DNA of 64,000 bases from Ignavibacteria bacterium (GCA_041694835.1 JBGFRZ010000082.1:52266-116265); one strand, 5' to 3'. Shown: positions 40,978 through 61,885, counted from the first letter of the stretch. Made by a program: numbers and translations. The notes: a model not told the origin generated them from the letters alone.

Positions 40978-42888
40978 TTATTTTCTGAAAACTTCCGGAA
41001 GTTTGCCGGGCAGTTTTTCGCCAATCTTTTTTTTCAGCTCTTCTTCGGCTTTCTTTTTTTCTATCTCAACATATTCTTTAATGCGGTTTTCAATCTCTTC
41101 AACTTTCGCTTTTGATTCGTCTATCCTGGAGCGAACTTCCTTCTGCTTGTCGATGTATTGTTTTTGTACAGATTCTTTTTTGGAGTTGAATTCTTTCATC
41201 ACCTCGTTTTTCTTCTCGTTAGTTAGACGAACTATTTCGGCTCTGATTTTCTTGTGAAATTCGGCGATTTTTTCTCCGAAAAGCGCTTTCAATCTTTTGG
41301 AAAATATCTTTTCGATATTTGAATTGACCGAAACTTTCAGGTTGTCCGACGGGCCGAGAACTCTTGCGTCGATATTTATGGCATCCATTCCCGACCAGAG
41401 GTTTTTCACAATTTCTTTGACCTCGTCGTCTTCTGGCGCTCGCGCTGAAACTTCGTCCATTGTGAGATTTAATCCACAGTCAATGATGTCGCCGTCCTTC
41501 ACGAACTTGGCGGAGATTCTCGAATTGCTTTTCTCAAAAGATGGCAGATAATCCGAAGACGGCAATCCAAGAGATTTTGATTCCAATCCAATGTAACTTA
41601 TATTCAGGGAGTCGTAAGGCGTTGATTGTGTGTGATCCAACTTGGCTGAAATTTCAATCTTTTTTTTGCCTTTATATCCTTTTATGTCCACAAGCATCGG
41701 ACGGCCTAAAAGAACGGGTTCTGAAGTTATGTCGGTCACCTCCCCTATAAATCCAAGAGGTTCTTCCTGACCAAATGCACCCGAGAGCGAGATTTTTTTT
41801 ATCAGGAAATCTGGCGATGTACCCTTTTTAGGGAAGATGACATCCGTACCCCTTAGACGTTTCCTGACGACTTTTTCCTCCTTTTTCCTGGCGGGCATGT
41901 ATTTTCGGGCAAGATGAATGTAGTACATTACATTATTGACCCTTTCAATCCATACCCTTCCGAAAATCGCCTCGGAGATGTTGCCAAAAGAAACCGGGGG
42001 AAGTTTCAACTTGTCGGCGAAAGCCCTGTAATCTTTCTCTTTAAGTTCGTTTAACCTGCCAAGTAAATTTTTTTCCGATCCGAAGTCGACGGAGATACTA
42101 TCCGATATTTGCATAATTTCCAAATACGATTTTTCGAGCTCCTGTTTCGAGCGGTTCAGTTCGTTTATGACCTGCTTTGCATTTTCGATGTCTTTTGCAT
42201 CCTGTATTTTTATTTGTCTTGCCATCTGCAGGGCGCTCTCGGCCGCTGCAAGTTGAGGGCTGAGCTTTAAATCCGAGAGTTTTGTTTCATAGTGAGAGTA
42301 TTTCTGCGAGTAGCTTTCTTTAAGTGCGTCCATCTCCTTGACCGAGCCAAGCTCGTCGAACTTTACAACTTTGTCAATCGATATTTCCTTGATTTCTTTC
42401 TCATATGATTTTATCTTAGAAAGAGCGGGGAGGGATGCTATCTCGCTCTCCGCTTTCTTTTTCAGTTTTCCGTAAAGCTCAGATGTCAGCCCCTGTTTTT
42501 TCTTCTTTTTCTCTATCTGCACCACCTTTTTCGGCGCAAGAGCGCCTGAAGTTTTACGAGGTGTTCCGGTTTTTATGCCTTCGACGGACATCTCCTCAAT
42601 TATGAATTTTTTCGAAAGAAGCGGGACGGGCTTCACGGCGAATCTGATATCGGATATCTCAAATAAATTCTTCCATGGGTCGTTTTTATCGGCAACTTGC
42701 AGATTTGATATCCCGACAGAGAGGTTTCTGAATTTTGTTTTAAGTGAACCAACATCGACTTTAGCACCGAATATCATCTCTCCCGAAGCCACCAGCGATT
42801 TCTTGAGCAGAATATCCAGCAAAAGGATATTAAAAAGCGTGATAAGAAAAATTATTGCCAACGCTGGAAGTAAAAATTTCCATCTCAT
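40978..42888 (-). CDS. membrane-anchored hypothetical protein (636 aa), possibly AsmA-like
   Basis: It has an N-terminal TM helix and a long coiled-coil middle. There is only weak resemblance to an AsmA N-terminus. Confidence 0.3.
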   Translation of the reverse strand: MRWKFLLPALAIIFLITLFNILLLDILLKKSLVASGEMIFGAKVDVGSLKTKFRNLSVGISNLQVADKNDPWKNLFEISDIRFAVKPVPLLSKKFIIEEMSVEGIKTGTPRKTSGALAPKKVVQIEKKKKKQGLTSELYGKLKKKAESEIASLPALSKIKSYEKEIKEISIDKVVKFDELGSVKEMDALKESYSQKYSHYETKLSDLKLSPQLAAAESALQMARQIKIQDAKDIENAKQVINELNRSKQELEKSYLEIMQISDSISVDFGSEKNLLGRLNELKEKDYRAFADKLKLPPVSFGNISEAIFGRVWIERVNNVMYYIHLARKYMPARKKEEKVVRKRLRGTDVIFPKKGTSPDFLIKKISLSGAFGQEEPLGFIGEVTDITSEPVLLGRPMLVDIKGYKGKKKIEISAKLDHTQSTPYDSLNISYIGLESKSLGLPSSDYLPSFEKSNSRISAKFVKDGDIIDCGLNLTMDEVSARAPEDDEVKEIVKNLWSGMDAINIDARVLGPSDNLKVSVNSNIEKIFSKRLKALFGEKIAEFHKKIRAEIVRLTNEKKNEVMKEFNSKKESVQKQYIDKQKEVRSRIDESKAKVEEIENRIKEYVEIEKKKAEEELKKKIGEKLPGKLPEVFRK

Positions 42889-42918: not shown

Positions 42919-43431
42919 CTATTTCAGTTTGTCGTATATCCCGTAAATTTTCGTAAGTTTAAGCACCTTCACTATTTTCAACTTTTCCACTTTCGTTTTC
43001 AGATTGGTGCGGTAGTAAATTATGAATTTTTTGGCGAGCAGATATACAGGAACAAAAAGTATAATCGAAATCAAAATGCTACCGAGAACAACGGTGTTGT
43101 TGAATCTAGTGAAAGGAACAATGGGCAGGTTGTAAAGATAACTCCAAAAAGGAGCAAGTAAGCGGGCATCCACAAGCAGAGCGTAGCCGAAGATATCGGC
43201 CAGCGGATCCGCAAAATAGGCCACGAGCTTGAACAAAAGCGCCGAAAATAAAGCTGCTCCTATGTTCACCTTAAGCAAGAATATCAACAGAAATACGAAG
43301 ATGCCGAGAACTAAGCTTAAAGGCACAAGACCAAGTATTACACCGAAAGCCACTCCGGCGGCGATCTCGGACGGAGAAATTTCACTGTGTAACAACCTTA
43401 TGATTTTCTGAATTATCTTTAGCCAAAACAT
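42919..43431 (-). CDS. DUF2062-family membrane protein
   Basis: SPSEIAAGVAFGVILGLVPL..L..FVFLLIFLLKVNIGAALFSALLF is the typical DUF2062 pattern. The gene is flanked by two copies of the palindrome gaaatccttcggatttc (42903 and 43448). Confidence 0.45.
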   Translation of the reverse strand: MFWLKIIQKIIRLLHSEISPSEIAAGVAFGVILGLVPLSLVLGIFVFLLIFLLKVNIGAALFSALLFKLVAYFADPLADIFGYALLVDARLLAPFWSYLYNLPIVPFTRFNNTVVLGSILISIILFVPVYLLAKKFIIYYRTNLKTKVEKLKIVKVLKLTKIYGIYDKLK

Positions 43432-43701
43432 CGATTCCCTCCCATGAAATCCTTCGGATTTCTACATGAGTGTGTATCAGTGCCGACTTAGGCATTCGCT
43501 TCCTGCAAACATTATAGTAATTATTTTTGGTTTTTCAAAAGGTGCTACACTCAAATGTACTGCGGGGGTTGACCCCGTTAGAAATTATAGCGCTCTTAAG
43601 AGGAAATTAAAAGTTTCCCTGAACTCCTCAAATCATCAGAGATTTCTAACGGGGTTGACTAAAAAATTCGTATTTGATAGAATAACTCGCATATAATTTG
43701 A

Positions 43702-43787
43702 CGCCGGGGTGGCGGAACTGGCAGACGCAAGGGACTTAAAATCCCTCGGGGGGCAACCTCCATGTGGGTTCGATTCCCACCCTCGGC
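43702..43787 (+). tRNA. tRNA-Leu (anticodon UAA), long variable arm
   Basis: GCCGGGGTGGCGGAACTGGCAGACGC-AAGGGACTTAAAATCCCTC-GGGGGGCAACCTCCATGT-GGGTTCGATTCCCACCCTCGGCA gives a cloverleaf with a 7-bp acceptor stem, an anticodon loop CTTAAAA and a T-arm GGGTTCGATTCCC. A TATAAT lies 6 bp upstream. Confidence 0.8.
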
Positions 43788-43799
43788 AAAAGGAGAATT

Positions 43800-43940
43800 T
43801 ATGGTAAAAAGGACATTCCAGCCGAAGGTTAGGAGGAGGAACAAAAGAATCGGTTTTCGTTCAAGGATGAAAACAAGCGGCGGGCGAAAAACCATATCCC
43901 GACGAAGAAAAACCGGAAGAAAGAGACTTTCCGTCGCCTG
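43800..43940 (+). CDS. rpmH: 50S ribosomal protein L34
   Basis: Hand translation gives [46 protein letters not shown] (46 aa). This is below the track cutoff. An RBS aaaggag lies upstream. Confidence 0.85.
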
Positions 43941-44294
43941 ATGCCCCATAAATTCTACTACTCCGAAAGACTTCACGGCAAGAAGGAGTTTGGCGTTGTA
44001 CTCAACGGCGGGTCTTACATAAACTCTGATTTTCTAACTATCATCTTTTACAAAAATCCTTTGCATAAAATCGTCCGTCTCGGATTGATCACAAAAAAGT
44101 CTGTGGGTCAAGCCGTTGAAAGAAACAGGGCCAAAAGAAGGCTGAGAGAAATCTTCAGGCTAAACAAAGACCGCCTTCTTAAGGGGCTTGACATCGTATT
44201 TATGCTCAAGCCGCCAATAATAAAGATGAGTTACGGTGAAATAGAAACAAAAGCGATGGAGATGCTCGCCAAAAAAAACCTCATATTAAAGTGA
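43941..44294 (+). CDS. rnpA: ribonuclease P protein component
   Basis: SERL....EF......G....N..F...F...........R.G..V.KK.G.AV.RNR.KRR.RE is the RnpA pattern. The start overlaps the rpmH stop (ATGA-type coupling). My hand count puts it 1 nt lower than the track. Confidence 0.85.
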   Translation: MPHKFYYSERLHGKKEFGVVLNGGSYINSDFLTIIFYKNPLHKIVRLGLITKKSVGQAVERNRAKRRLREIFRLNKDRLLKGLDIVFMLKPPIIKMSYGEIETKAMEMLAKKNLILK

Positions 44295-44434
44295 GCCCCG
44301 TCAGAAATTACCGGGATTCTATGAAAAATAAAAAAGTTCGGCTCTTCTCCAAATGTTTTTATACGCACAACAAAAAATGGCGAAGACCCGAAAGTTTTAA
44401 CAAACCTTACAAATATCGGAAAGTTTCTTGTAGT

Positions 44435-44641
44435 ATGAAAAAGATAGTTTTTTTTATCATCGATTTCGTAAAAATGTTTCGCTTAATACCGGGTGCGGCT
44501 TGCCGTTTTCATCCATCCTGCTCCGTTTACACCAAGGAGGCCGTGGAGAAATACGGAATAACGCGAGGAATTTTGATGGGAGCGATGAGGGTTCTTAGAT
44601 GCCACCCTTTTTCAAAAGGTGGCTATGCTCCTTTAAAGTGA
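44435..44641 (+). CDS. yidD: membrane protein insertion efficiency factor YidD
   Basis: CRFHPSCSVYTKEAVEKYGITRGILMGAMRVLRCHPFSKGGYAPL. The start was chosen at MKKIVFF, because the track's GTG-initiated 48-codon extension looks non-genuine. Confidence 0.7.
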   Translation: MKKIVFFIIDFVKMFRLIPGAACRFHPSCSVYTKEAVEKYGITRGILMGAMRVLRCHPFSKGGYAPLK

Positions 44642-44842
44642 ATTCGCGAACCCGCTTTGCGATTTTCATATAACTCTATCACTTTACTACCCTGTTATTT
44701 TTTACCGCTCTGCGACAGAAACCGATAAACCCTGCAAACGGGGTAAATCGGCGACTACATATATCAATTATCCGTGGCGCAGAACATCACTCGTTGTCTC
44801 TGCGGGCTTTGTAGTCGGAGTTTATTACATAGGAGGAAAAAA

Positions 44843-46351
44843 ATGAAAAAAAACACAATAATTGCTGTGATTTTATCGATTGCTTTTCTGATACTTTGGA
44901 CGCGTTTTTATCAAGTCCCGAAGCAAAAAGAGAAAGTCGCTTTTCAGGAGACGACGCCGCCTCAAAATCAGAGGCAGGAAATCGTTGAACCACCCAAAGA
45001 AGCCGCCAAAATGCGGGCGCCCGAAGAAAAAACGAGCACGATGGATAGGGTTAAATCAAAAATCACTTTCACAAGCAATGGCGGCGCCGTAAAAAAATAC
45101 GAGGTGAAAGAAAAAGACAAGATTACGGATATAGTTTTTAAGGGAAGTGAATTTTTCTCGACTTATCCCGATACGTCGGCAAAAATAACGACAACGAAAA
45201 ACGCTGTCATATCAAGGCAGGAAATAGACGGACTCGTAATTCAAAAGACATACCTCTTGAACGACGACAGCATAGAGAAGTTGAAGATAGAGCTCGCAAA
45301 CCAGCGAAGGGTGAAGGTTTCCTCGGAGTTTAAGATGAAAGTCTCCGGCGGGCTCGCTTCAGATTCTCCCGATGAAAAAGAAAACATAGACTTGAATAAA
45401 GTGCACATCTACTCTCAAAAAAAACCGCAGGTTGTCAAATCCGGAAAAAGAAGCCTTGAAAACGTGAAGTGGTTTACAAACGACAACAGATACTTCCTGC
45501 TTGCACTGATGCCCGTAAAATACCAAAAAGAAGAAATAGAGGTAGTGCCGAAGACAAAAACCTCGCCACCTGTGGTCTATTTGACCACAAACATTTCTCT
45601 GGAGGCGGGAGAAAAAAAATCGCTTGAATACGGTGTATACATAGGCGGCAAATCATATTTTGAACTGACTAAAACAAACACGGGCCTTGAAAAAACCATT
45701 GCTCTCGGTCTCCTCGACGGGATGGCTAAATTCTTCCTTAAAGCGCTCTCTGCCATAAACAAAATTTTGGGAAACTACGGTTGGGCGATAATAATCCTCT
45801 CCCTTGGAATACAACTTATAACATCTCCACTTTCCATAAAATCCATAAAAGCGGCAGCCGATATGAAGCGGCTTCAGCCTCATCTTAAAGAAATACAGCA
45901 GAAGTTCAAGAACGACCCAAAAAGACTCAACGTCGAGGTAATGAATCTTTACAAAACTCACCGCGTGAACCCTTTGAGCGGTTGCTTGCCGATGCTTCTT
46001 CAAATGCCAATATTTTGGGCACTTTTTTCGACACTGCAAAACGCTTACGAACTAAGACATGCCCCGTGGATTTTATGGATAAAAGACCTCTCCTCTCACG
46101 ACCCTTATTATGTTCTTCCCCTTCTAATGGGTGCGGGAATGTTCGCTCAGCAGATAATGTCCGGAACAACGCACGATCCACAGAATAAGATGATGAGTTA
46201 TATCTTCCCGGCGGTTTTTACGTTTATGTTTTTGAAATTCCCGTCGGGGGTAGTTCTCTACTGGCTGATGAACTCGGTCCTCACGATAATTTTGCAGTTG
46301 CTCTTTTTGGAGAAAGAAGTGATAAAAGAACACCATATTGTTAAACGTTAA
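44843..46351 (+). CDS. yidC: membrane protein insertase YidC
   Basis: The C-terminal core LPLLMGAGMFAQQIMSGT...FPSGVVLYWLMNSVLTIILQLLF is present. The start was chosen at MKKNTIIAVIL, which has an aggagg RBS. Confidence 0.85.
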   Translation: MKKNTIIAVILSIAFLILWTRFYQVPKQKEKVAFQETTPPQNQRQEIVEPPKEAAKMRAPEEKTSTMDRVKSKITFTSNGGAVKKYEVKEKDKITDIVFKGSEFFSTYPDTSAKITTTKNAVISRQEIDGLVIQKTYLLNDDSIEKLKIELANQRRVKVSSEFKMKVSGGLASDSPDEKENIDLNKVHIYSQKKPQVVKSGKRSLENVKWFTNDNRYFLLALMPVKYQKEEIEVVPKTKTSPPVVYLTTNISLEAGEKKSLEYGVYIGGKSYFELTKTNTGLEKTIALGLLDGMAKFFLKALSAINKILGNYGWAIIILSLGIQLITSPLSIKSIKAAADMKRLQPHLKEIQQKFKNDPKRLNVEVMNLYKTHRVNPLSGCLPMLLQMPIFWALFSTLQNAYELRHAPWILWIKDLSSHDPYYVLPLLMGAGMFAQQIMSGTTHDPQNKMMSYIFPAVFTFMFLKFPSGVVLYWLMNSVLTIILQLLFLEKEVIKEHHIVKR

Positions 46352-46412
46352 TAGTTCAAGAGTTTATTGGTGGTTCGTGATTCGTTTCCTCCAGCCACCA
46401 GCCACTTTTTTT

Positions 46413-47051
46413 ATGAACTACGAATTCAGGGGAAAAAGCGTCAAAGAGGCCCTTCAGAAATCCCTCAAAAAACTTTCGCTTGCCGAAGACGAGGTGGAAG
46501 TAACAATCCTTGACGAGGGAAAAAGGGGCCTTTTTTCGCTTGAAGGAAAGCAACAGGCGGTTATTCTCGTAAAACCCAGAAAAACGCAACTAACCGCAGC
46601 AGACTTTATAGAAATCCAAAAAAAAATCAAAAAGCATCTTTCCGAAATCCTGAGGTGCGCGGGGATTCCGTTTAAAAAGATAAATACGACTATGATGACT
46701 GGAAGGATATTCATCAATATCATCTGCGGCAAAAACCCGATGGACGAAGATTTCTTGTTCGCCCTTGAATCAATCATTTACGAAATCATAAATAAAGACA
46801 AAACTTCCTCCCTGAAAATACACCTCGATTCAAACTTCATAATTAAAAAAATGGAAGAAAATCTCAGAGAGAAAACCATAAAGATAGCTCATATCGTTAA
46901 AAAAACCGGAAAACCGCATAAATTTAGCGAGCCTTTGAGATTTTTTTTCAGAAAAATAGTCCATGACGCCGTAAGGGAAGTGCCGGGAACAACATCCGTC
47001 TCACACGGAAGCGGGGAAGAGAAAACGGTCGAGATATACCCGAAGCCGTAG
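46413..47051 (+). CDS. jag: Jag/KhpB-like RNA-binding protein (Jag_N + KH/R3H-like)
   Basis: Position between yidC and mnmE. The Jag-N-like start MNYEFRGKSVKEALQKSLKKLSL is present. Confidence 0.55.
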   Translation: MNYEFRGKSVKEALQKSLKKLSLAEDEVEVTILDEGKRGLFSLEGKQQAVILVKPRKTQLTAADFIEIQKKIKKHLSEILRCAGIPFKKINTTMMTGRIFINIICGKNPMDEDFLFALESIIYEIINKDKTSSLKIHLDSNFIIKKMEENLREKTIKIAHIVKKTGKPHKFSEPLRFFFRKIVHDAVREVPGTTSVSHGSGEEKTVEIYPKP

Positions 47052-48433
47052 TGAATAAAATGTATAGCGCAACCGAAACCATAACTGCAATCTCCACGCC
47101 CCCTCAGCTTTCTGCCATAGCGATAATACGTATAAGCGGGAAAAAATCTCATGAGATACTCTCACGGATATTCAGACCAGCCGCCGGCAAAATCATTCCA
47201 AGAATGGCGTTGACGGGAAGCATCTTTGACGGTCAAAAACAGATAGACGAGGTCATAGCGATTCAATTCAACGGCCCCAACTCATACACAGGCGAGGACA
47301 TGGCCGAAATCCACTGTCACGGAAGCCCCTTCGTCGTCCAGAAGATACTGAAACTCATATATAGTTTCGAAGGAACAAGACTCGCCGAAAGGGGGGAGTT
47401 TACATACAGGGCTTTCCTCAACGGTAAAATGGACCTTACTCAGGCAGAAGCGGTGGTTAAGATCATAGAGTCAAAATCGGAGCTTTCGCTAAAAAGTGGG
47501 TTGGGGCAGCTCAAAGGCAGACTCTCCGGGAAAGCAAAAGAATGGAAATCAGAGCTTGTGGGCATTTTGTCCACAATAGAGGCGTCTATAGAAGATTATG
47601 AGGACACGGAGACCCCAAATACCGGAAATATCACAGAAAAAATAAATAATTTGGTTGACGACATGGAAAAAGTTCTCGAAAAAACCGGCGAGTTCCTTTC
47701 AACGGACATACCGGTTGTTATAGTGGGTAAGCCCAACGCAGGAAAATCTTCGGTTTTTAACGCCCTGGCCGGCGAAGAAAGGGTGATAGTTACCCCCATA
47801 GCCGGGACCACGACCGACATCGTCTCGGAGACGCTCCAGTGGGACGGGCTTTCATGGAAGCTCCACGACACAGCCGGAATAGGAAGCAATCCTACCGACA
47901 TAATCGAAGAGATTGGTCAGAGCAAAACCCACCGCAAACTAAAAGAATCCGAGGTTATACTCTTTGTCCTGGATTCGTCGGTCCCCATGGACGCGATAGA
48001 CACTGAGATTATGAAAAAGATAGAACTGGTCGAAAACAAACTGCTCGTTTTTGTGCTTAACAAATCGGACAAATCCAGCGTGGTAAAAAAAGCCGACATT
48101 GAAGCTTTTTTCAAAAAAGAGGGAATAATCGCCGTCGAGCTGTCGGCAAAAACAGGCTTCGGAATAAGAACGTTAAAGGAAACTATGACAAAACTTTGTG
48201 GCGGCGACGTTGAAAACTCCGAGGAGATAGTGGTGGGTTCGATGAGACAGAAAAATGCCATAAAAAACTCTGCCAACATCCTTAAAAAAGCAGTTTCGGA
48301 ACCAGGAGACGACGAAGAGGTTTTGGCTCACCACATAAAACTCGCAATCGACCAGATAAGGGAGCTTTTGGGCGAGATAACCGCTGACGATGTCCTTGAT
48401 GAAATATTTTCAAGATTCTGTGTCGGGAAATAA
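47051..48433 (+). CDS. mnmE: tRNA modification GTPase MnmE
   Basis: AISTPPQLSAIAIIRISG is the N-terminal motif. The G domain is VVIVGKPNAGKSSVFNAL ... DTAG. The C-terminus is CVGK. The start overlaps the jag stop. Confidence 0.9.
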   Translation: MNKMYSATETITAISTPPQLSAIAIIRISGKKSHEILSRIFRPAAGKIIPRMALTGSIFDGQKQIDEVIAIQFNGPNSYTGEDMAEIHCHGSPFVVQKILKLIYSFEGTRLAERGEFTYRAFLNGKMDLTQAEAVVKIIESKSELSLKSGLGQLKGRLSGKAKEWKSELVGILSTIEASIEDYEDTETPNTGNITEKINNLVDDMEKVLEKTGEFLSTDIPVVIVGKPNAGKSSVFNALAGEERVIVTPIAGTTTDIVSETLQWDGLSWKLHDTAGIGSNPTDIIEEIGQSKTHRKLKESEVILFVLDSSVPMDAIDTEIMKKIELVENKLLVFVLNKSDKSSVVKKADIEAFFKKEGIIAVELSAKTGFGIRTLKETMTKLCGGDVENSEEIVVGSMRQKNAIKNSANILKKAVSEPGDDEEVLAHHIKLAIDQIRELLGEITADDVLDEIFSRFCVGK

Positions 48434-48674
48434 TGTAGGGGCTTTCTAATGCTCTGTGCCATAAATAATTGACATTTTATCACAGAGACGCGGAGAAAAG
48501 TGAAAGTATCACAAAGAAATTACCAACGGAGATTTGAACTCTGTGTTTTTTCTCTGTGTTCTTTGTGCCTCTGTGGTAAGGCTTTTCAGTTCTGTGTTAT
48601 TAAAACCCTTAACCACGAAGACACGAAAACGCGAAAAATATCGTTCTCTTTTTGTAAATCCCCCTGCTTCGCTT

Positions 48675-48710
48675 CCCCCTTTACAAAAGGGGGTTAGAGG
48701 GGGATTTTCC
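48675..48710 (+). terminator. candidate intrinsic terminator hairpin ccccctttacaaaaggggg followed by ttagagggggatttt
   Basis: A perfect 8-bp G/C-rich stem with a U-tract nearby. It lies 240 bp downstream of mnmE, in a repeat-rich spacer. Confidence 0.3.
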
Positions 48711-48893
48711 ATGATTTCTAACTTTCGCGCTTTCGTGGTAAAGTTTTTTCTCTGTGTTCTCCTTGCCCCGTTAGATGCTTGCTATCTAACGGAGTGAATG
48801 TCTCTGTGGTGAATTTTAGCGAAGCGCCAGTGAACCCTAAATATCATCTGTGGGCGGCGCCTTATATGACTTTCGGCAGGAGCTATTGACTTT

Positions 48894-49691
48894 ATGTCTA
48901 CAAAATACGGACAAAACTTTCTCATCGACAAAAACATAGCGCTCAAAATAGCCGAAGCCGCGGAAATTTCCGCTTCCGACACAGTCATAGAAATAGGCCC
49001 TGGCAAAGGGATAATAACCGAACATCTACATGAGAGGGCGAAAAAAGTCATTGCAGTTGAAATAGATAAAAATCTCGCCGGACTTCTGAGCGAAAAATTT
49101 AAACACGGAAGAATTGATGTAATAAACGAAGATGTACTGAAAGTTGACCTTGCAAAACTCGCCGGAGCTGACAAAATAACGTTCGTAGGCAACCTCCCTT
49201 ACTACATATCAACTCCGATATTGCATAAGATAATGACGGGAGAATACTGGAAGACCGCCATATTCACCTTCCAGAAAGAGGTCGCCGAAAGAATTGTGGC
49301 TAAACCATCTAAAAAGAATCCTAAAAATTATGGCTATCTTTCAGTAATCTGCACTCTCTACTCCGAGTCAAACATAATAATGAAAATACCACCCGAGGCT
49401 TTTTTTCCGAGACCAAAAGTAATGTCGGCTGTCGTTAAGTTCAAGCCCATTTTTCCGAAAATAATAAAAGACGCCGATACGGAAAGACTCTTTTTTAAGA
49501 CAGTCGGGACGGCTTTCGCTCAAAGAAGAAAAAAAATTTCGAACTCCATAGCGGCTGCGAGCGAAATTGAAAAAGAAAAAATAATAGAGATTCTGAAGCA
49601 ATCCGGAATACCTTCCGACTCCAGGGCCGAAGAGCTCGGTTTGAGCGACTTCCTAAATTTGACTTACCACTTTAAAAATAGTATAATCTGA
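48894..49691 (+). CDS. rsmA: 16S rRNA (adenine1518/1519-N6)-dimethyltransferase
   Basis: GQNFLIDKNIALKIAE...VIEIGPGKGIITEHL is the KsgA signature. Confidence 0.85.
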   Translation: MSTKYGQNFLIDKNIALKIAEAAEISASDTVIEIGPGKGIITEHLHERAKKVIAVEIDKNLAGLLSEKFKHGRIDVINEDVLKVDLAKLAGADKITFVGNLPYYISTPILHKIMTGEYWKTAIFTFQKEVAERIVAKPSKKNPKNYGYLSVICTLYSESNIIMKIPPEAFFPRPKVMSAVVKFKPIFPKIIKDADTERLFFKTVGTAFAQRRKKISNSIAAASEIEKEKIIEILKQSGIPSDSRAEELGLSDFLNLTYHFKNSII

Positions 49692-49776
49692 TATCTAAAA
49701 ATCCGCTTCTATTTAAGGTTATATCAACTATTACATCTGTCTAAATAACAAAATATGACATTAAAAGGCAAAAAAA

Positions 49777-49826
49777 GATATCAACAAAAAGATATCAACA
49801 AGTGTTGATAATTTTGTGGATAACAT
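49777..49826 (+). promoter_or_regulatory. DnaA-box cluster upstream of dnaA: perfect box tgtggataa (49815-49823), 1-mismatch box tgttgataa (49803-49811), two copies of agatatcaaca
   Basis: The consensus TTATCCACA is read on the complementary strand. The perfect box is 13-21 bp before the dnaA ATG. Confidence 0.6.
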
Positions 49827-49835
49827 AAGTTTGAA

Positions 49836-51236
49836 ATGGAAAACATTCAAGACATCTGGAAAAAGATAATAGAGGGGCTTAAAGGAAGGTTAACATCAGA
49901 AGTTGTGGAGCTCTGGCTGGGCCCGGTTAAACTCCTAAAAAAAGAGGGTGCCGGCGAGTTATCTTTTGTTATAAAGGTGCCGAACAAATTCTTCAAAAAT
50001 TGGATTGAAGAAAATCGCATAGTTGATGAGATAAAAAGGGCAATATCCGAAAAATACTCGCTCCACGACGATTCGTCCATATCCATAGAATACCTGGAAC
50101 TTCAGGATTTGTCGGCCTCAAAATCGGAAGGATTTTCCGCCGGCTTCAAACTTCAGAAAAGCGAGACGCAAGTAACAACCCGCCAGGAACAGGCCGTGGT
50201 TTCTTCGACGATTTTTAATCCCAAACTCACATTTTCAAGGTTCATAGTGGGAAAACAAAATCAATTCGCATATTCCGGGGCATGGGCGGTGGCTAATGAT
50301 CCCGGAAAACAGTACAATCCTCTTTTCATATGGGGAGGAGTAGGGCTTGGTAAAACCCATCTTTTGCATGCCATAGGCAATCGGATAAAAGAAAAATCCC
50401 CGTCTTTAAAAACGCTCTATATCCAAACCGAAACCTTCATAAATGACTTTATAGATTCTCTCAGGTTCGATAAACCCGCTTCCTTCAGAAACAAATATCG
50501 CTCGGTTGAATGCCTGCTTATCGACGACATACAATTTCTTGCTGGAAAAACAAGCTGTCAGGAAGAGTTCTTCTACACATTCAACGCCATATACGACTTC
50601 AAAAAACAGATAGTCCTCACTTCAGACAAACCCCCCAAAGACATTGAAGGTCTTGAGGAAAGACTAATATCCCGTTTTGTTTGGGGGCTCGTTGTTCCCA
50701 TGGACCCGCCGGATCTTGAAACAAGGATAGCTATCTTGCGCTCAAAAGCCGAAGAAGAAAGGGTGTATGTTTCTGAGGACATAATACTCTATCTCGCCAA
50801 CGAGATAAAAACGAACATAAGGGTCCTCGAGGGGGCTCTAACAAAAGTTGTCGCCACCGCCGCCCTGCTTGATACCCCGTTAACTCTTGATGTCGCCAAA
50901 AAGATGCTCAGCGACATAATAACAAAAGAAAATGTTGGCGTTCCAATAAACATAGAAAGAATACAGAAAATCGTGGCGGAACATTACAACATAAAGGTTT
51001 CGGATTTAAAGTCGAAGAAAAGAACGGAGATGCTCGCCATGCCCCGACAGATAGCGATGTATCTGTCGAGAGAGATGACGAGCGAATCTCACACCTCTAT
51101 AGGTGACGCCTTCGGAGGGAAAGATCACAGTACGGTCATCCACGCAATAAACAAAATAAAATCGAAGGTTGTGGCAGATCCTTTTTTCAGCGCTGAAATA
51201 AACAAAATAGCTAAAAAAATAACTTTCAGCGAGTGA
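49836..51236 (+). CDS. dnaA: chromosomal replication initiator DnaA
   Basis: NPLFIWGGVGLGKTHLLHAIGN is the Walker A. LLIDDIQFL, the sensor motifs and a C-terminal DNA-binding domain are present. Confidence 0.95.
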   Translation: MENIQDIWKKIIEGLKGRLTSEVVELWLGPVKLLKKEGAGELSFVIKVPNKFFKNWIEENRIVDEIKRAISEKYSLHDDSSISIEYLELQDLSASKSEGFSAGFKLQKSETQVTTRQEQAVVSSTIFNPKLTFSRFIVGKQNQFAYSGAWAVANDPGKQYNPLFIWGGVGLGKTHLLHAIGNRIKEKSPSLKTLYIQTETFINDFIDSLRFDKPASFRNKYRSVECLLIDDIQFLAGKTSCQEEFFYTFNAIYDFKKQIVLTSDKPPKDIEGLEERLISRFVWGLVVPMDPPDLETRIAILRSKAEEERVYVSEDIILYLANEIKTNIRVLEGALTKVVATAALLDTPLTLDVAKKMLSDIITKENVGVPINIERIQKIVAEHYNIKVSDLKSKKRTEMLAMPRQIAMYLSREMTSESHTSIGDAFGGKDHSTVIHAINKIKSKVVADPFFSAEINKIAKKITFSE

Positions 51237-51484
51237 ATCTGTGTTGAATGAGTGTTGGGATTTTGTTAATAACTCTTTAAAACCGTAGATAATTTCAAAA
51301 ACCGTTGAAAAAAAGAAGTTATCAGAAAAATTTCAACTTAAAGATAAACTTTAAACATCCGCTAAAAGGTGATATTTTTACTGATAAAAAAACGGCTTTC
51401 GAAAATTTTCAACAGAATTAACATCGCTAATACTACTAACACTAAATTAAAGATATAGTATTAAATCAACATTAAGGAGGATTT
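51237..51484. promoter_or_regulatory. AT-rich dnaA-dnaN spacer (candidate oriC/DUE region)
   Basis: About 248 bp that are strongly AT-rich with A-tracts. Only weak DnaA-box-like words (ttatcagaa) are present. Confidence 0.3.
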
Positions 51485-52636
51485 ATGTTTATCAAAGCGC
51501 CGAAGGAAAAATTTGTATCTATGCTAAATGTAATACAAAATGCCGTATCCCAAAAGACGACGATGCAGATACTGAACAACTTCTACATAGGCATAAAAGG
51601 AAAGAAGGTCCATCTTTCCGCCACGGACCTCGAGATATATGTTGAAGGAGAATTCGACATTGACGATGGGACGAAATCCGAAAAAGAGAAAATAGAGCTT
51701 AAGGATGGCGAGTGCGCTATTCCAGCCAAGAGGTTCATAGATATGCTCAAAGAACAAGAGTCCGGAAAGATGCTTTCGGTTGAGATTGGAGAGTCAAACA
51801 GGGTGGATGTGAAATGCGGAAGGTCGCACTTTAATCTGCCCGGGTTTTCGGCGAAAGACTATCCCGAACCCCTTGAGTTTCCGAAACAGAAAGTCATCGC
51901 GGTTTCGTCAGTTCTTATGAAAGACATAATAGAAAAAACACTCTTCGCTGTATCGGCCGAGGACATAAGATATGCCCTCAACGGCGTTTATTTTATAGTT
52001 GAAAAAGATACTCTGAAGCTGGTTTCAACCGACTCTCGCCGCCTTGCTTTTGTAAGCGGGGATATAGACGGCTCCAAATTCACCCACAGCGCTATAGTTC
52101 CGCAGAAAGCCCTAAACGAACTTCTTCGTCTTATAGACTTACTGCAGCCGACGTCGATTAAAATAGGATTTTCGGACAATCAGGTTTCTTTCGAGTTGAA
52201 CGAGGTTACTTTGAGCTCCAGAATTATCGACGGCGAGTTTCCGAACTACGAAAGGGTGATTCCAAAAACATCCGCCATATCTGCCAAGATAAAGGCTAAA
52301 GATCTTCTTTCAGGTCTCAGGCAGTTGCAGTTTCTGTCACAGGACAAATCCAGTGCGGTGAAGTTTTCGTTCAAAAAAGGAGTCCTCACGCTTGTGGCGT
52401 CTGCACAGGGCATAGGGCAGGGGGAGGTGGAGCTCGACATAGATTACAGCGACAAGCCGCTCGATATAATCTTCAATATGAATTATCTTTTCGATTTTTT
52501 AAAAGTTGTAAAAGAAAGCGAACTCAAGATTGAGCTGAATTCCGGGGTAAACCCGGCCATATTTTCACTGGCTTCGGAAATGATGCCGAACGTGAAGAAA
52601 TATCTTTACATCGTCATGCCGATAAGAACGGAATAA
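51485..52636 (+). CDS. dnaN: DNA polymerase III beta sliding clamp
   Basis: LKLVSTDSRRLAF and the three-domain length (383 aa). An RBS aaggagg lies upstream. Confidence 0.9.
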   Translation: MFIKAPKEKFVSMLNVIQNAVSQKTTMQILNNFYIGIKGKKVHLSATDLEIYVEGEFDIDDGTKSEKEKIELKDGECAIPAKRFIDMLKEQESGKMLSVEIGESNRVDVKCGRSHFNLPGFSAKDYPEPLEFPKQKVIAVSSVLMKDIIEKTLFAVSAEDIRYALNGVYFIVEKDTLKLVSTDSRRLAFVSGDIDGSKFTHSAIVPQKALNELLRLIDLLQPTSIKIGFSDNQVSFELNEVTLSSRIIDGEFPNYERVIPKTSAISAKIKAKDLLSGLRQLQFLSQDKSSAVKFSFKKGVLTLVASAQGIGQGEVELDIDYSDKPLDIIFNMNYLFDFLKVVKESELKIELNSGVNPAIFSLASEMMPNVKKYLYIVMPIRTE

Positions 52637-52641
52637 TAAGC

Positions 52642-52920
52642 GTGGTAACGAAGGCGAAGGATATAGTCGAGCTTGTATTCAAGAAATTTGGTTTTTCTTC
52701 GAGAACTCAGGATATTTTTGAAGCGTGGGCTAGCCTCGATAGAGCCATAACGCTTGATTCGGAGCTTTGTGAGGTTTGCCGCGGAGTTCTTTATGTTAAA
52801 GTGAGGTCTCCGATGGCATTTAATAGCTTGTACTACAACAAACGTAAGATAATACACTCGCTTAATGCGAGGCTCAAAGAAAAGGTTGTAAAAGATATAA
52901 AATTTGAAATGGCTCTTTAG
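52642..52920 (+). CDS. DUF721-family (DciA-like) small protein between dnaN and gyrB
   Basis: IFEAWASL....L..VCRGVLYVKVRSPMAFNSLYYNKRKIIHSLN fits the DUF721 pattern (W...G.L.V.V.S..W..EL......I...LN). No recF is present. Confidence 0.5.
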   Translation: MVTKAKDIVELVFKKFGFSSRTQDIFEAWASLDRAITLDSELCEVCRGVLYVKVRSPMAFNSLYYNKRKIIHSLNARLKEKVVKDIKFEMAL

Positions 52921-52969
52921 AGCATTCGTATAGAATATACAACGGCGAAAAGAGAGTTTCTTCCGTTAG

Positions 52970-55450
<2,481 letters not shown>

Positions 55451-55467
55451 AATCGTAAAAAAGTAGA

Positions 55468-56484
55468 ATGAAAACAAAGGTAAAATGTAAACAAAGAGAG
55501 AACAAACAATCGTTTGTAAGAGAGAACGTAACCTCATCACTTTCTTATCGGATAACTATACCAAATTTTGAATATGGTGCTATTTGGGAAGACCCGATTA
55601 GCGGACATAAAATTGGCTGCCTTGATGTATCAAAAAAGGAAGATGTTGAAAGGCTGATGCAGGGCAAAAAAGCAATCTTAGCGGTTCAAGACCCGCCGTA
55701 TAATGTTGATATAAATGACGAGTTTGGAAACTTGCCTTTGGAAAAATACATTAACTGGAGCGAAAAGTGGGTTGATAATACAATAGATATTCTTGATAAA
55801 AATTCCTCTCTTTATATTTGGCTTGGTGCAGATATTAGAAATGCCTTGCAACCACTACCAGATTTTATGATTATGATGAGAAACAAACCCGTTCAAATTA
55901 GAAACTTTATTACAATGAGAAATCAACGGGGGTACGGAACTCAGAAAAACTGGATGGCAATACGGCAAGAATTGCTTTACTACATAAAAGGCGAGCCGAT
56001 TTTTAATGTTCAAGCCGAATATACAGACATACTAAAAAAAACAAAGGGATACTATAAAGAAGTAAACGGAAAAGTTACGGAAAATTTTGAGAGAAGCAAA
56101 TCCTTAACTATCAGAGCAGGAAATGTTTGGCACGATATACAACAGGTTTTCTATTTAATGCATGAGAATGTAGAGGGTTGTTTTGCTCAAAAACCACTTA
56201 AATCAGTAAAAAGAATTATTGAAGCAAGTAGTAATAAGGGCGACATTGTCATAGATTTTTTCGGCCATTCCGGTTCTACTTTGTTGCAAACGGAATTAAG
56301 TAAAAGAAAATGTTATACGATGGATATAAATCCCGCATATTGCAAAATAATGGCCGCCCGCCTGCTCCATTATCGCCGAACAGGCGAAACTGGCTGGGGC
56401 AGGACAAAAATTTTAAAGGATGGGAAAATTTTAGTGCAGGACGAACAATTATTAGGCACACCAACCTTATTAGATTTAATTTAA
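55468..56484 (+). CDS. DNA methyltransferase, N6-adenine/N4-cytosine (PF01555-type, DPPY motif), inserted between gyrB and gyrA
   Basis: AVQDPPYNVDI is motif IV. IDFFGHSGSTLLQTELSKRKCYTMDINPAYCKIMAARL is motif I. The gene is AT-rich. Confidence 0.8.
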   Translation: MKTKVKCKQRENKQSFVRENVTSSLSYRITIPNFEYGAIWEDPISGHKIGCLDVSKKEDVERLMQGKKAILAVQDPPYNVDINDEFGNLPLEKYINWSEKWVDNTIDILDKNSSLYIWLGADIRNALQPLPDFMIMMRNKPVQIRNFITMRNQRGYGTQKNWMAIRQELLYYIKGEPIFNVQAEYTDILKKTKGYYKEVNGKVTENFERSKSLTIRAGNVWHDIQQVFYLMHENVEGCFAQKPLKSVKRIIEASSNKGDIVIDFFGHSGSTLLQTELSKRKCYTMDINPAYCKIMAARLLHYRRTGETGWGRTKILKDGKILVQDEQLLGTPTLLDLI

Positions 56485-56489
56485 ACAAT

Positions 56490-57221
56490 ATGGACAAAAG
56501 GAATTTAGACAAAAAACTGGAAGAATGGATTAAAGAATTACCACAGGAAAGTAAGAAATCTTTACTGGCTCGTTTAAGCGGTTTGAAATCTATTTATCCG
56601 TTCAATGAATACGAATATCGTTTGATGTATCTTTTGGATAAGAAAATTATTACTTTCCGAGAGTATGAGGATTTGAGAAATTCCTATGTTAATGCCAATC
56701 CTTATCTGAATCTCTATAGTATTTCGCCGCGAGTGTTTGGTGAAATTTGGGCCCAACAGCATTTAGTTGATATTGATGCAAGATTTAAGAAACCGTCAAA
56801 AAAAATTGATAAAAAGTATTCCGGCGATTATGACCTTTATCTTGAAAACGAAAAGAAAATAATAAAAGTTGAAGTTAAGGCATGTCGGGCAATCAATACA
56901 AAACTTCGTGGCGGACTGGAAACCAAAGCGTTAAGCTTTGAATCAGACGAGCCGTATTGGATGAATTTTCAGCAGATTAAATTGGACATAGCGGATGTTT
57001 TCGTTTTTGTCGGCGTTTGGGTAGATAAAATTCTTTATTGGGTTTTAACGAATAAAGAGGTTAAGAAACACCCAACCAGAAGTCATCAACACAGAGGCGG
57101 TATTGAATACCAAATTGGCATTACAGAAAAGAATATAAAGGAATTTAAGAAATTTTTAGTTAAACCAAATCGATTAGTTGATAATATAAAATCAAACTTG
57201 CTAAAGGATGGAATTACTTAA
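56490..57221 (+). CDS. candidate type II restriction endonuclease with PD-(D/E)xK-like motif
   Basis: [19 protein letters not shown] has the D...E-V-K spacing. It lies immediately downstream of the MTase and is AT-rich. The start was chosen at MDKRNLDKK, because the track ORF overlaps the MTase by 175 bp. Confidence 0.4.
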
Positions 57222-57223
57222 TT

Positions 57224-59746
57224 ATGACGGAACAGAATGAAAAAAATTTAGAAAAAAATCAAAAACAAGAAATCTTACCGACGGGCATAACCCCCAGAAA
57301 CATTGAAGACGAGATGAAGTCGTCATTCATTGATTATTCGATGAGCGTTATAATGAGCCGCGCTCTTCCCGATATTCGCGACGGTTTGAAACCCGTTCAT
57401 CGAAGAATTTTATTCACAATGAAAGAAATGGGTCTTCGACATAACGTTGCATATAAAAAGTCAGCCCGCGTCGTCGGTGATTGCCTTGGAAAGTATCATC
57501 CGCACGGCGACACCGCCGTCTATGATTCAATGGTCAGAATGGCTCAGGATTTTTCGCTCAGATACCCGCTTGTCGACGGACAAGGCAATTTCGGCTCAGT
57601 CGACGGCGATAGCCCTGCCGCTATGAGATACACGGAAGTAAGAATGAAGACCATAGCCGACGAACTCTTGTCAGACCTTGACAAAGAAACGGTGGATTTT
57701 GTCCCGAACTACGACGGTTCACTTGAAGAGCCGTCCATACTTCCAGCAAAACTTCCCAATCTTTTAATCAACGGCTCGTCGGGCATTGCCGTCGGTATGG
57801 CAACGAACATACCGCCGCATAACCTGTCTGAGGTTATAGACGGAACGCTCGCCGTCATCGATGACCCTGAAATAACGGTTCAGGGGATTTCAAAAATCGT
57901 CAAAGGCCCAGATTTTCCGACGGCAGGAATAATTCAAGGAAAATCCGGAATAAAGAGTTATCTTGAAACCGGTCGCGGCTCCGTCAAGATGCGCGCCAAA
58001 GCCGAGCTCGAGGAGATGAAGGGCAACCGCGAGGCGATAATAATAAACGAGCTCCCCTACCAAGTGAACAAAGCGTCCCTGCTTGAAGCCATAGCCGACC
58101 TTGTAAAGGACAAAAAACTCGACGGTATATCAGATCTCAGAGATGAGTCCGACAGAAAAGGGATGAGGGTGGTCATAGAGCTCAAGCGCGACGCAAACGC
58201 TCAGATAGTTTTGAACCAACTGTTCAAGCACACCCAGATGGAGAGTTCGTTCGGCGTAATAATGCTTGCAATCGTCGACGGCAAACCGCGAATATTGAAC
58301 ATAAAACAACTCCTTGAAAACTATATCGAGCACAGAAAAGTAATCGTCATAAGGCGGACAAAATATGAATTAAAAAAAGCCGAGGCTCGCGCCCATATCC
58401 TTGAAGGATTGAAAATCGCTCTCGACCATCTCGACGCCGTCATAAAGACGATAAGAGAATCAAAGGATGTTGAGTCGGCTCGCGAACGTCTGATAGAAAA
58501 ATTCAAACTCACAAAAATTCAGGCGCAGGCGATACTGGAAATGAAACTCCAGCAATTGACAAATCTCGAAAGAAAGAAAATCGACGACGAATATCTTGAG
58601 TTGATAAAGTTGATTGATAAATTGAAATCAATTCTGGCAGATACCCGAAAGGTATTGAACGTCATCAGGACGGAACTGGAAGAACTGAAAGAAAAACACG
58701 GCGACGCCCGCCGCACAAGGATTGTTGCCCAGATGGTCGAACTCGACGAGGAAGATTTGATTCAGCATGAAGAAGTCGCGGTAACGCTTTCGCATACCGG
58801 CTACATTAAAAGGATACCACTCTCTACTTACAGAGCTCAGGGTCGCGGTGGTAGGGGCGTTACGGGAATGACAACGAAAGACGAGGACTTCGTCGAACAT
58901 CTCTTTACGACCGACACTCATGCGTATCTCTTGCTTTTCACGAATAAAGGACGATGTCACTGGCTCAGGGTCTATGAAATTCCCGAAGGAACTCGCGCGG
59001 CGAAAGGCAAGGCGGCGGTTAATTTTATTCAGATCAGCTCCAATGAAAAAATAACGGCGGCCATACCCATCAAGTCATTTGAGGAAGAAAAAGAATCGTA
59101 TCTTCTGATGGCGACAAAAACGGGAACGATAAAGAAGACACCCCTTTCCGAATATTCAAACCCTAGAAAAGGCGGAATAATAGCGCTCAATCTTGAAACC
59201 GGAGATGAACTCATAGATGTCAAGCATACCGACGGCGAATCCGAAGTGCTCATGGCCACCAGAGACGGCATAGCCATAAGATTCAAGGAGACGGATGTCA
59301 GACCGATCGGCCGCGCAGGAAAAGGCGTAAGAGGTATAAAACTTGAAAAAAACGACTCTGTCGTAGGCATGGAAGCCGTCAGAAAAGACGACATATTTCT
59401 TACCGCCACCGAGAACGGCTACGGAAAAAGAACAGAGGTCGGCAAATATCGTCTTCAATCGCGTAGCGGAAAAGGCGTCAAAAATATGAAAACGACCGAT
59501 AGAAACGGAAGAGTCGTAGGGATAAAGAAAGCGATCGATACAGACGACCTTATGCTTATGACTCAAAAAGGCGTGACTATACGGCTTGCGTGTCAGTCAG
59601 TTGGTATAATAGGAAGAAATGTGCAAGGCGTTCGACTTGTGCGTCTTGATGAAGGCGATAAACTTTCTGCCATAGCGACCGTCGTTAAAGAAGAAAACGG
59701 CGACTCGGCCGCTAACCCCGAGAAATCGGAGAAATCTCAGCAGTGA
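57224..59746 (+). CDS. gyrA: DNA gyrase subunit A
   Basis: AMRYTE carries the active-site Tyr region. The QRDR-like region and the C-terminal beta-pinwheel repeats are present. Confidence 0.95.
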
Positions 59747-59812
59747 TAAATTTCTCAGACGAGAAATTCGAACAAATGTTCGAAAGTTCCGACGAGAGAA
59801 TTCGGGGGTTTA

Positions 59813-60232
59813 ATGGAAGGCTTCAAGCTAATAAACCACACCGCCGATACAGGGATAGAAGTCGCAGGTCATACCCTTGAAGAGCTTTTTGTAAATTCGG
59901 CTCGCGGCTTATATTGCATACTTCTTGGCGAAAAAGTTGAATCCCGCCTCAAAAAAAAACTTCCCCAAAAAAGCAATATCTCCCTCGATGCCCCGGATAT
60001 AGAAACCCTAATAGTTGAATGGCTTAATGAGATTCTTTTTTTTGCCGTAAATAAAAACAAGTATTTTGATAAAATAGAGTTAAAGATATCTGGCAACGCG
60101 CTGAAAGCGTCGCTTGCCGGCGGCATATTTGAAGGCGGTTTCCGTCACGAGGTAAAATCGACGACATATCACGACTTAAAAATCGAAAAAACAAAAAAAG
60201 GTTACAGAACAAAAATAATATTCGACATCTGA
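59813..60232 (+). CDS. archease
   Basis: MEGFKLINHTADTGIEV and length (139 aa). It lies upstream of rtcB, as is typical. Confidence 0.8.
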   Translation: MEGFKLINHTADTGIEVAGHTLEELFVNSARGLYCILLGEKVESRLKKKLPQKSNISLDAPDIETLIVEWLNEILFFAVNKNKYFDKIELKISGNALKASLAGGIFEGGFRHEVKSTTYHDLKIEKTKKGYRTKIIFDI

Positions 60233-60254
60233 AGCAGCGAAGCGAATAAAAATC

Positions 60255-61706: not shown

Positions 61707-61780
61707 CGCAACTTTATTAAAAATATATTATTTTTTTGTATAATGAGCTCGTTGAAAAACCTTAATCTTTTGAACGATTT

Positions 61781-61885
61781 GGCAGTTTTAGGTTAAAAGT
61801 TGAAATCGTTTAGACCGCAATGTCCGACGAGCAAAGCGAGGAGTTTTGCGGTCTGATTGAAACTTTTAACCGTTAAGAAACTGCC
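61781..61885 (+). ncRNA. candidate cis-regulatory RNA: ~105-nt extended imperfect stem-loop in the leader of the COG1900 homocysteine-synthesis operon
   Basis: ggcagtttt/aaactgcc, ggttaaaagtt/aacttttaacc and agaccgcaa/ttgcggtct are nested complementary pairs around the loop tgtccgacgagcaaagcgaggagt. Confidence 0.35.

Follow-up and report, generated by a model that had tools for sequence, protein, structure and literature searches.

In Bacillus subtilis, Pseudomonas, Actinobacteria and other bacteria, the genes around the replication origin share a canonical synteny, in which rnpA-rpmH is divergent from dnaA-dnaN-(recF)-gyrB. In Escherichia coli, oriC lies ~42 kb from dnaA, and the fork that leaves oriC meets the rpmH-rnpA-yidD-yidC-mnmE operon head-on. 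The downstream part of the Helicobacter pylori origin does not adjoin dnaN. In B. subtilis, the unwinding sequence reads TTATCCACA AATCCACAG GCC CTACTATTACTTCTACTA, and both its layout and its 12-nt distance recur in the DNA described here, a 64,000-nucleotide stretch of contig JBGFRZ010000082.1 (GCA_041694835.1; contig positions 52266-116265, hereafter the window) that carries dnaA, dnaN and the genes from rpmH to mnmE. The window probably contains the replication origin of its source, and this origin would be dnaA-linked, bipartite and of the Bacillus type.

The unwinding region of B. subtilis, incC, lies between dnaA and dnaN (PMC6669920). In a basal unwinding system, a DnaA box that differs from TTATCCACA at no more than 2 positions is followed, after a spacer of 0-16 bp (peak 10-13), by three or more DnaA-trios; each trio is 3'-NAN-5', with the consensus 3'-GAT-5', and in B. 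subtilis an A+T-rich stretch follows (PMC8287927). For Elusimicrobium minutum Pei191, a module with a TTATCAACA box is predicted in the supplement of the same study (PMC8287927). A literature search for a paper dedicated to Elusimicrobia origins found none, the supplementary-table prediction for E. minutum being the sole trace. The closest matches to the DnaA of the window come from Endomicrobiia/Elusimicrobia metagenome-assembled genomes (MAGs; 70-71% identity) and, by these matches, the source is a member of the class Endomicrobia of the Elusimicrobiota. Loci used for comparison carry L numbers.

In the dnaA-dnaN spacer of the window, a DnaA box, a degenerate second box, a short spacer, a run of DnaA-trios and an A+T-rich stretch follow one another up to the ribosome-binding site of dnaN (Table 1). 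The proximal box, TTTTCAACA, is oriented towards the trios and differs from TTATCCACA at 2 positions and from the clade variant TTATCAACA at 1. It is separated from the first trio by 12 nt, made up of GAATTAACA (4 mismatches) and TCG, a length within the peak published for such spacers (10-13 nt; PMC8287927). By eye, spacers of 12 nt can be made out in L004, L122 and L124 too. Four consecutive trios (CTA ATA CTA CTA), three of them consensus, are followed by a mismatched ACA and then by a further CTA, and the array at 51427-51444 has the top trio score of the window on either strand. A strict module pattern allowed no more than 2 mismatches in the box and no more than 16 nt of spacer, and required three or more CTA among four NTN triplets. 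It occurs a single time on both strands (128 kb), at 51406 with the 12-nt spacer, and turned up in 2 of 20000 shuffles of the dnaA-dnaN spacer. By nearest-neighbour calculation, duplex stability reaches its lowest values at 51427 and at 49673, both at about the 0.1% level of the window. The 60-bp segment from 51427 belongs to the 7 with the lowest stability in the 64 kb, the whole dnaA-dnaN spacer stands at the 0.09% level, and the stretch at 51445-51474 has the A+T-rich, easily melted character of an unwinding element (87% A+T).

The window DnaA matches B. subtilis DnaA (8btg) with E = 4e-122 (phmmer), and the equivalents of the trio-contacting residues Asn187 and Ile190 are kept (TFIND FIDS in the query vs KFTNE FINS). 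In the same alignment, Lys222 is also kept, Glu223 is replaced by Thr and Asn196 by Asp.

Related loci carry a similar arrangement. Their boxes are too degenerate for the strict pattern, and these loci were therefore scored by their trio arrays instead. In 7 of 14 loci (window, L001, L003, L116, L118, L121 and L125), the plus strand of the dnaA 3' spacer carries the locus-best array, as in L121 (CTA CTA CTA CCA CTA CTA) and L116 (TTA CTA TTA CTA CTA), and arrays equivalent to that of the window are found at the matching position in L001, L116, L118, L121, L123 and L125. The alignment consensus reads TTnTCAACA nTATCAAnA nGC CTA TTA CTA CTA nTA CTA, followed by the A+T stretch and then by the dnaN ribosome-binding site. 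In L117 (3952-4243), ileS stands in place of dnaN downstream of dnaA, and a DnaA box with CTA-type repeats still follows dnaA. The stretch equivalent to the distal spacer, 51237-51405, contains 1-4 boxes in relatives.

On the other side of dnaA, four boxes are packed into 49778-49823. The cluster reads ATATCAACA, 5 nt, ATATCAACA, 2 nt, TGTTGATAA, 3 nt, TGTGGATAA, with two boxes rightward and two leftward, and the last box lies 12 nt 5' of the dnaA ATG. The same two-right/two-left layout directly precedes dnaA in L001, L116, L117 and L118, 2-4 boxes are found there in L120-L123 and L125, and the cluster can be aligned across eight genomes. A position weight matrix (PWM) for the DnaA boxes of the clade, trained on sites of relatives only and with the window excluded, gave 21 matches of at least 10 bits in the 64 kb (background 0.33/kb), and its top two 300-bp segments begin at 49776 (4 such matches) and 51251 (2 matches). 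An earlier note on this DNA had located the strongest DnaA boxes at the dnaA start and had suggested a PWM scan. The cluster does contain the only perfect TTATCCACA of the window together with three near-perfect boxes, and both of the best-scoring segments flank dnaA. The dnaA-dnaN spacer, which the note had called AT-rich, has 26% G+C vs 42.5% for the window; the rsmA-dnaA spacer is lowest, with 24%.

Box counts (at most 1 mismatch to TTATC(A/C)ACA) were compared in five genomes: the window, L116, L120, L121 and L122, in that order. The rsmA-dnaA spacer holds 4, 4, 3, 2 and 3 boxes (expected 0.09-0.23) and the dnaA 3' spacer 2, 4, 1, 3 and 4 (expected 0.17-0.90); the mnmE-rsmA spacer holds 0 in all five (expected 0.02-0.41), and the spacer at the coding-strand switch holds 0, 0, 1, 1 and 0 (expected 0.24-0.50). 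For the window itself, the 4 boxes upstream of dnaA compare with 0.10 expected, and the at least 2 downstream with 0.17. Box clusters thus lie on both sides of dnaA, the bipartite arrangement, in the window and in the four relatives.

The upstream cluster also follows the dnaA promoter, which is the best promoter match in 43.3-51.6 kb and has counterparts of the form TTGACA(C)-17-(G)TATAAT at the equivalent position before dnaA in L001, L116 and L118. The cluster would be the upstream half of oriC and/or the operator of dnaA autoregulation. As it is located between promoter and ATG, it probably serves autoregulation too, and it could be an autoregulatory operator alone. Direct-repeat arrays phased 7-9 bp apart occur in L001 (250-400; unit TTTCAC) and L116 (9157-9256 and 3220-3275; unit CACTAWYCACT, including cTATCCACt). 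These adjoin the dnaA promoter upstream, and L116 has them in front of the tRNA-Leu/rpmH promoter as well. Such arrays may bind DnaA weakly or act as promoter-upstream elements. The rsmA-dnaA spacer of the window has no phased direct-repeat arrays of this type.

From the gene map, the positions of boxes and trios, their conservation and the synteny, a course of DnaA binding, unwinding and fork movement may be predicted. DnaA on TTTTCAACA (51406) and on the degenerate neighbouring box would form an oligomer that spreads onto the trios at 51427-51444, and this oligomer would open the A+T-rich stretch at 51445-51474 before dnaN, the predicted site of first unwinding. A putative helicase loader of the DciA type is encoded two genes downstream of dnaA. 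With unwinding at ~51.43-51.47 kb, the leftward fork would meet dnaA, rsmA, mnmE, jag, yidC, yidD, rnpA, rpmH and tRNA-Leu head-on. With the block inverted and the origin placed at dnaA, transcription over these ~7.7 kb, from tRNA-Leu to dnaA, would run towards the origin, and the fork would reach co-directional genes only beyond them.

The orientation of this block is what sets the locus apart. The earlier note had stated that the rpmH block is normally divergent from dnaA, and this is true of the ~65 outgroup loci compared (Acidobacteriota, Bacillota, Desulfuromonadales and others), in which rpmH, rnpA, yidC and mnmE lie directly upstream of dnaA on the opposite strand; jag belongs to the divergent block where it was detected, and rpmH is 450-970 bp from dnaA. 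The Pfam gene map of the window confirms that the block is instead co-oriented with dnaA, with rsmA between them. The whole block, in identical internal order and followed by rsmA, is co-oriented with dnaA in the window, L116, L119, L120, L121, L123, L124 and L125. Co-orientation also fits what is present in the short contigs L117 and L118 and in L122, which covers mnmE-rsmA-dnaA only; L001 is too short to tell. The strand switch stands at the 5' end of the block in all co-oriented loci that extend far enough. rsmA is immediately upstream of dnaA in 11 of 11 Endomicrobia-type loci with upstream sequence, and was not found near dnaA in the ~65 outgroup loci. Beyond the block, parA-parB keep the canonical leftward orientation in L125, as does a parA-type gene in L120, and the dnaN-DciA-gyrB order is kept in relatives except L117. 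The Elusimicrobium-type genomes L002-L004 have other genes upstream of dnaA.

Gene content and order match a single in-place flip of the canonical divergent segment, and the comparison therefore supports the reading that the rpmH-mnmE segment was flipped next to dnaA by one inversion. The past inversion suggested in the earlier note is in this sense upheld, by co-oriented blocks in seven relatives vs divergent ones in the outgroups. It would be an old, class-wide event, since relatives that share only ~50% DnaA identity have it; a recent inversion was considered and ruled out on the same ground. The inversion would have taken place in the class ancestor, the switch at 43.4-43.7 kb would be the far end of the inverted block of ~4.7 kb (tRNA-Leu, rpmH through mnmE), and rsmA would now stand between the block and dnaA. 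A metagenome scan with MnmE for close relatives spanning the region returned matches of at most 39% identity only.

The switch itself is sharp. In a greedy map of open reading frames (ORFs) of at least 70 aa over the whole window, 29 consecutive ORFs from 1530 to 43431, and a 72-aa ORF at 1234-1452, lie on the minus strand, and only plus-strand genes are found from 43703 to 63507. The plus-strand ORFs on the left (310-522, 849-1145 and 21341-21577) are all short, and a Pfam search of these three gave no match. The earlier note had described the same flip as 33 minus-strand coding sequences giving way to 22 on the plus strand; the pattern was recovered, the exact counts were not. The note had further remarked that such a flip usually marks oriC and had offered, as the alternative to an inversion, an origin at the tRNA-Leu/DUF2062 boundary; an origin there is not supported. 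In the switch spacer, DnaA boxes (up to 1 mismatch) and trio arrays are both absent, no PWM match of at least 6.5 bits occurs in 43300-46024, and the duplex stability of the spacer is ordinary (5.6% level). Four relatives have 0, 1, 1 and 0 boxes there, and across relatives the sequence is conserved only in the promoters and the tRNA. The DnaA signals are at the flanks of dnaA: boxes and trios lie 6.1-7.7 kb to the right of the switch and do not coincide with it. What the spacer does contain is two strong divergent promoters, which are 2 of the three best sigma-70-type matches in 43.3-51.6 kb, the third being the dnaA promoter. In L116, TTGACT-17-TAGAAT likewise precedes tRNA-Leu(UAA), itself before rpmH. 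By these features, the switch spacer is a divergent promoter region, not an origin.

Two further observations concern this region. The 8-mer CCGTTAGA occurs 7 times in the window (332/392, 43575/43652, 48768/48792 and 52963), always intergenic, with six occurrences forming three inverted-repeat pairs CCGTTAGA...TCTAACGG. The pair at 43575/43652 is directly upstream of the tRNA-Leu promoter and overlaps its -35 element; the repeats may form a small family of palindromes or serve as a site for a regulator. L120 (4519, TTGTCAACA) and L121 (4489, TTATCAACA) each have one good DnaA box in the interval from the rpmH promoter to the start codon. This box may be a remnant of an ancestral rpmH-dnaA origin half or a DnaA control site of the rpmH operon.

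Table 1. Positions of genes, spacers and sequence signals in the window, counted from its first nucleotide.
Feature	Position	Strand	Evidence or remark
DUF748-like	40978-42888	-	Pfam
DUF2062	42919-43431	-	Pfam
Coding-strand switch spacer	43432-43702		271 bp, 38% G+C
Promoter-like site TTGAAA-16-TATAAT	43511..43538	-	11/12 consensus; for leftward DUF2062 gene string
Promoter-like site TTGACT-17-TAGAAT with TG	43655..43683	+	For tRNA-Leu + rpmH operon
tRNA-Leu(UAA)	43703-43788	+	ARAGORN; Rfam tRNA 55.8 bits
rpmH	43801-43941	+	Pfam
rnpA	43941-44294	+	Pfam
yidD	about 44435-44641	+	Pfam
yidC	44774-46351	+	Pfam
jag	46338-47051	+	Pfam
mnmE	47051-48433	+	Pfam
mnmE-rsmA spacer	48434-48893		460 bp
rsmA/ksgA, 16S rRNA adenine dimethyltransferase	48894-49691	+	Pfam RrnaAD 1.2e-59
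dnaA promoter TTGACT-17-TATAAT	49659-49687	+	Overlaps rsmA 3' end; 11/12 consensus
rsmA-dnaA spacer	49692-49835		144 bp
DnaA box ATATCAACA	49778		First of cluster
DnaA box ATATCAACA	49792		Second of cluster
DnaA box TGTTGATAA	49803-49811		Third of cluster
DnaA box TGTGGATAA	49815-49823		Fourth of cluster; only perfect TTATCCACA of the window
dnaA	49836-51236	+	Pfam DnaA_N, Bac_DnaA, Bac_DnaA_C
dnaA-dnaN spacer	51237-51484		248 bp
Weak/medium leftward DnaA boxes, distal spacer 51237-51405	TGTTAATAA at 51264, CGTTGAAAA at 51303		PWM 11.3 and 8.7 bits
Proximal DnaA box TTTTCAACA	51406-51414	+	
Degenerate second box GAATTAACA	51415-51423	+	
3-nt spacer TCG	51424-51426	+	
DnaA-trios CTA ATA CTA CTA ACA CTA	51427-51444	+	Bottom strand 3'-GAT TAT GAT GAT TGT GAT-5'
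A+T-rich stretch AATTAAAGATATAGTATTAAATCAACATTA	51445-51474		87% A+T; between trios and dnaN ribosome-binding site
dnaN ribosome-binding site + start AGGAGGATTTATG	51475-51487		
dnaN	51485-52636	+	Pfam
DciA-family helicase-loader gene	52642-52920	+	Pfam
gyrB	52979-55450	+	Pfam
DNA methyltransferase (N6/N4)	55468-56484	+	Pfam
gyrA	57224-59746	+	Pfam
archease	59813-60232	+	Pfam
rtcB	60255-61706	+	Pfam

Protein genes in Table 1 were identified with Pfam, and the tRNA with ARAGORN and Rfam. The interval between gyrB and gyrA (55468-57221) holds the N6/N4 DNA methyltransferase gene and then a 243-aa ORF (56490-57221) with no Pfam match; in L118, the same interval carries a methyltransferase and an HNH nuclease, matching the insertion place in the window. 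The insertion is probably a restriction-modification cassette. Further to the left on the minus strand, two c-di-GMP-I-type riboswitch aptamers lie in tandem at 17471-17607 and 17765-17900 (Rfam RF01051, RF03167) and precede a 122-aa ORF (17094-17462), for which Pfam gave no match. Two adjacent very large ORFs of 1015 and 1616 aa occupy a low-G+C stretch of the minus strand (5694-13581), with coding-strand GC3 and AT3 skews far stronger than in their neighbours, and the ORF at 1530-5168 has a CHU_C (type IX secretion) sorting domain.

Base composition does little to separate the candidate sites. Cumulative AT and purine skew turn at ~43.0 kb, at the coding-strand switch; as the coding strand is purine-rich, both skews track it. 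Cumulative GC skew, which the earlier note had proposed as a check, stays level from 43.0 to 51.5 kb, where it runs from -1533 to -1503 and has its formal minimum at 47339, and at this scale the candidate sites are not told apart. Codon-position and four-fold-site skews do not set the block apart from its flanks in the window: at four-fold sites, the coding-strand GC skew is -0.138±0.045 for the rpmH-dnaA block, -0.106±0.027 for the genes to the left and -0.147±0.034 for those to the right. When block and flanks were compared in five genomes, L120 and L122 were lagging-like, L116 had the opposite sign and the window showed no difference.

Several points weigh against a Bacillus-type origin at dnaA. 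The model rests on sequence patterns throughout, and composition lends it no independent support, given the flat GC skew over 43-51.5 kb and the heterogeneous four-fold-site skews. The published criteria for an unwinding module are loose, and 85% of predicted origins fit them (PMC8287927). The proximal box departs from TTATCCACA at 2 positions and the second at 4; 1 of the 6 trios (ACA) is without the conserved central base; and L002, L004, L117, L120, L122, L123 and L124 have a weak trio array or one that is outscored elsewhere in the locus. A class-wide head-on tRNA gene and rpmH are also somewhat unexpected where gene-strand bias is otherwise complete, which leaves room for an origin at the switch.

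An origin or unwinding site at 43432-43702 would mean that the function moved there, or that the block was never head-on, and that the boxes at dnaA are regulatory only. This is judged decidedly improbable. It would account for the complete gene-strand bias on both sides, for the turn of AT and purine skew and for the constant position of the switch relative to the block in all relatives, it would avoid a head-on tRNA gene and rpmH, and it has one DnaA box near the rpmH promoter in L120 and L121 on its side. Against it stand a window spacer without box or PWM match, background box density in the relatives, the lack of a trio array, ordinary duplex stability and a sequence unconserved beyond promoters and tRNA. 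Moreover, the AT and purine skew follows the coding strand and hence is not independent, and the rpmH operon of E. coli persists head-on. The rsmA-dnaA spacer might also be the sole origin, opening at 49692-49775 (24% G+C), with the array beyond dnaA coincidental or regulatory: it holds the four strongest boxes in a conserved cluster, the lowest G+C and the stability minimum at 49673. Its claim is nevertheless an unlikely one, as no CTA-type trio array lies beside its boxes, the conserved dnaA promoter and 5' leader fall within its A+T-rich stretch, the spacer measures just 81-152 bp in several relatives, and it is the spacer beyond dnaA that keeps the box-spacer-trio module, even with dnaN lost.

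The mnmE-rsmA spacer is given hardly any credence as a part of the origin or a DnaA-titrating locus, in which its CTCTGTG/TATCACA repeats would be degenerate DnaA sites. It is the longest spacer of the region, has 7 of the 12 CTCTGTG/CACAGAG heptamers of the window and some TATCACA or CCACA fragments, and TTCTGTG motifs similar to these recur at the mnmE-rsmA junction of L117. However, no site in it reaches 6.5 bits with the PWM, DnaA boxes are lacking in all five genomes, its G+C is average (42%) and its duplex is stable. The spacer forms nested inverted repeats (fold z-score -5.4 vs shuffled controls). Searched against Rfam, it gave no family at gathering score (best match E = 0.012), and an 87-aa ORF within it (48534-48797) had no match in Pfam. 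In relatives, the junction measures 16-232 bp (16-88 bp in L116, L120 and L121) or has taken up unrelated genes, a RhuM-family gene in L124 and an RHH/ParE toxin-antitoxin pair in L125. The CTCTGTG repeats were ruled out as DnaA sites for want of PWM matches, and the spacer is read as a variable insertion hot spot or scar, outside the predicted origin. It is also very improbable that the true origin lies outside the window, in the manner of the E. coli oriC 42 kb from dnaA, with the strand switch and the motifs linked to dnaA being local features. A sharp GC-skew minimum is lacking in a view limited to 64 kb, as such an origin would predict; yet strand bias flips completely within the window, the unwinding module linked to dnaA-dnaN is conserved, and rpmH block, dnaA, dnaN and gyrB still stand in their ancestral synteny.

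With the origin placed at dnaA, the head-on string from tRNA-Leu through dnaA might be merely tolerated or kept by selection, and the latter has a poor chance of being right. Were it so, growth-rate-controlled transcription of the tRNA and rpmH towards oriC could couple the timing of initiation to ribosome synthesis, or a programmed head-on conflict zone could slow the leftward fork, and the class would be a natural system for studies of transcription-origin coupling. The placement at dnaA gives the likeliest replication start for the poorly studied, mostly uncultured Endomicrobia. It would also extend the Bacillus-type module of box, trios and A+T unwinding stretch to this class, with TTATCAACA as the preferred box. 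The locus is a clear case in which, owing to an old local inversion, an origin predicted from gene-orientation switch and purine/AT skew would be misplaced by 6-8 kb, and is in this respect of value for origin-finding software and for setting MAG coordinates. Otherwise, an expected type of origin is combined with a lineage-specific rearrangement.

Compared with B. subtilis oriC, which has incA/B upstream of dnaA and incC downstream, the window likewise has box clusters on both sides of dnaA. Its dnaA-dnaN spacer resembles incC in its rightward box, degenerate tandem box, 3-nt spacer, period-3 CTA/TTA repeats and A+T-rich stretch. In contrast to B. subtilis, the preferred box of the clade is TTATCAACA rather than TTATCCACA, the upstream cluster has just four boxes and lies between promoter and ATG, the predicted loader is of the DciA type rather than DnaD/DnaB/DnaI, the rpmH operon points towards dnaA rather than away from it, and the origin in the window is a predicted one. 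The two box clusters separated by dnaA, with the unwinding element downstream, also recall oriC1/oriC2 of H. pylori (PMC6669920, PMC8287927), the flanking genes of which differ from those of the window. The gene set and neighbourhood are those of the canonical synteny; Endomicrobia differ in the inverted rpmH-mnmE segment, in having rsmA between this block and dnaA, and in a DciA-family gene that replaces recF. E. coli provides a precedent for the head-on persistence of the rpmH operon near an origin after rearrangement. There, the origin moved and the block is still divergent from dnaA, whereas in the window the predicted origin signals are at dnaA and it is the block that has been flipped.

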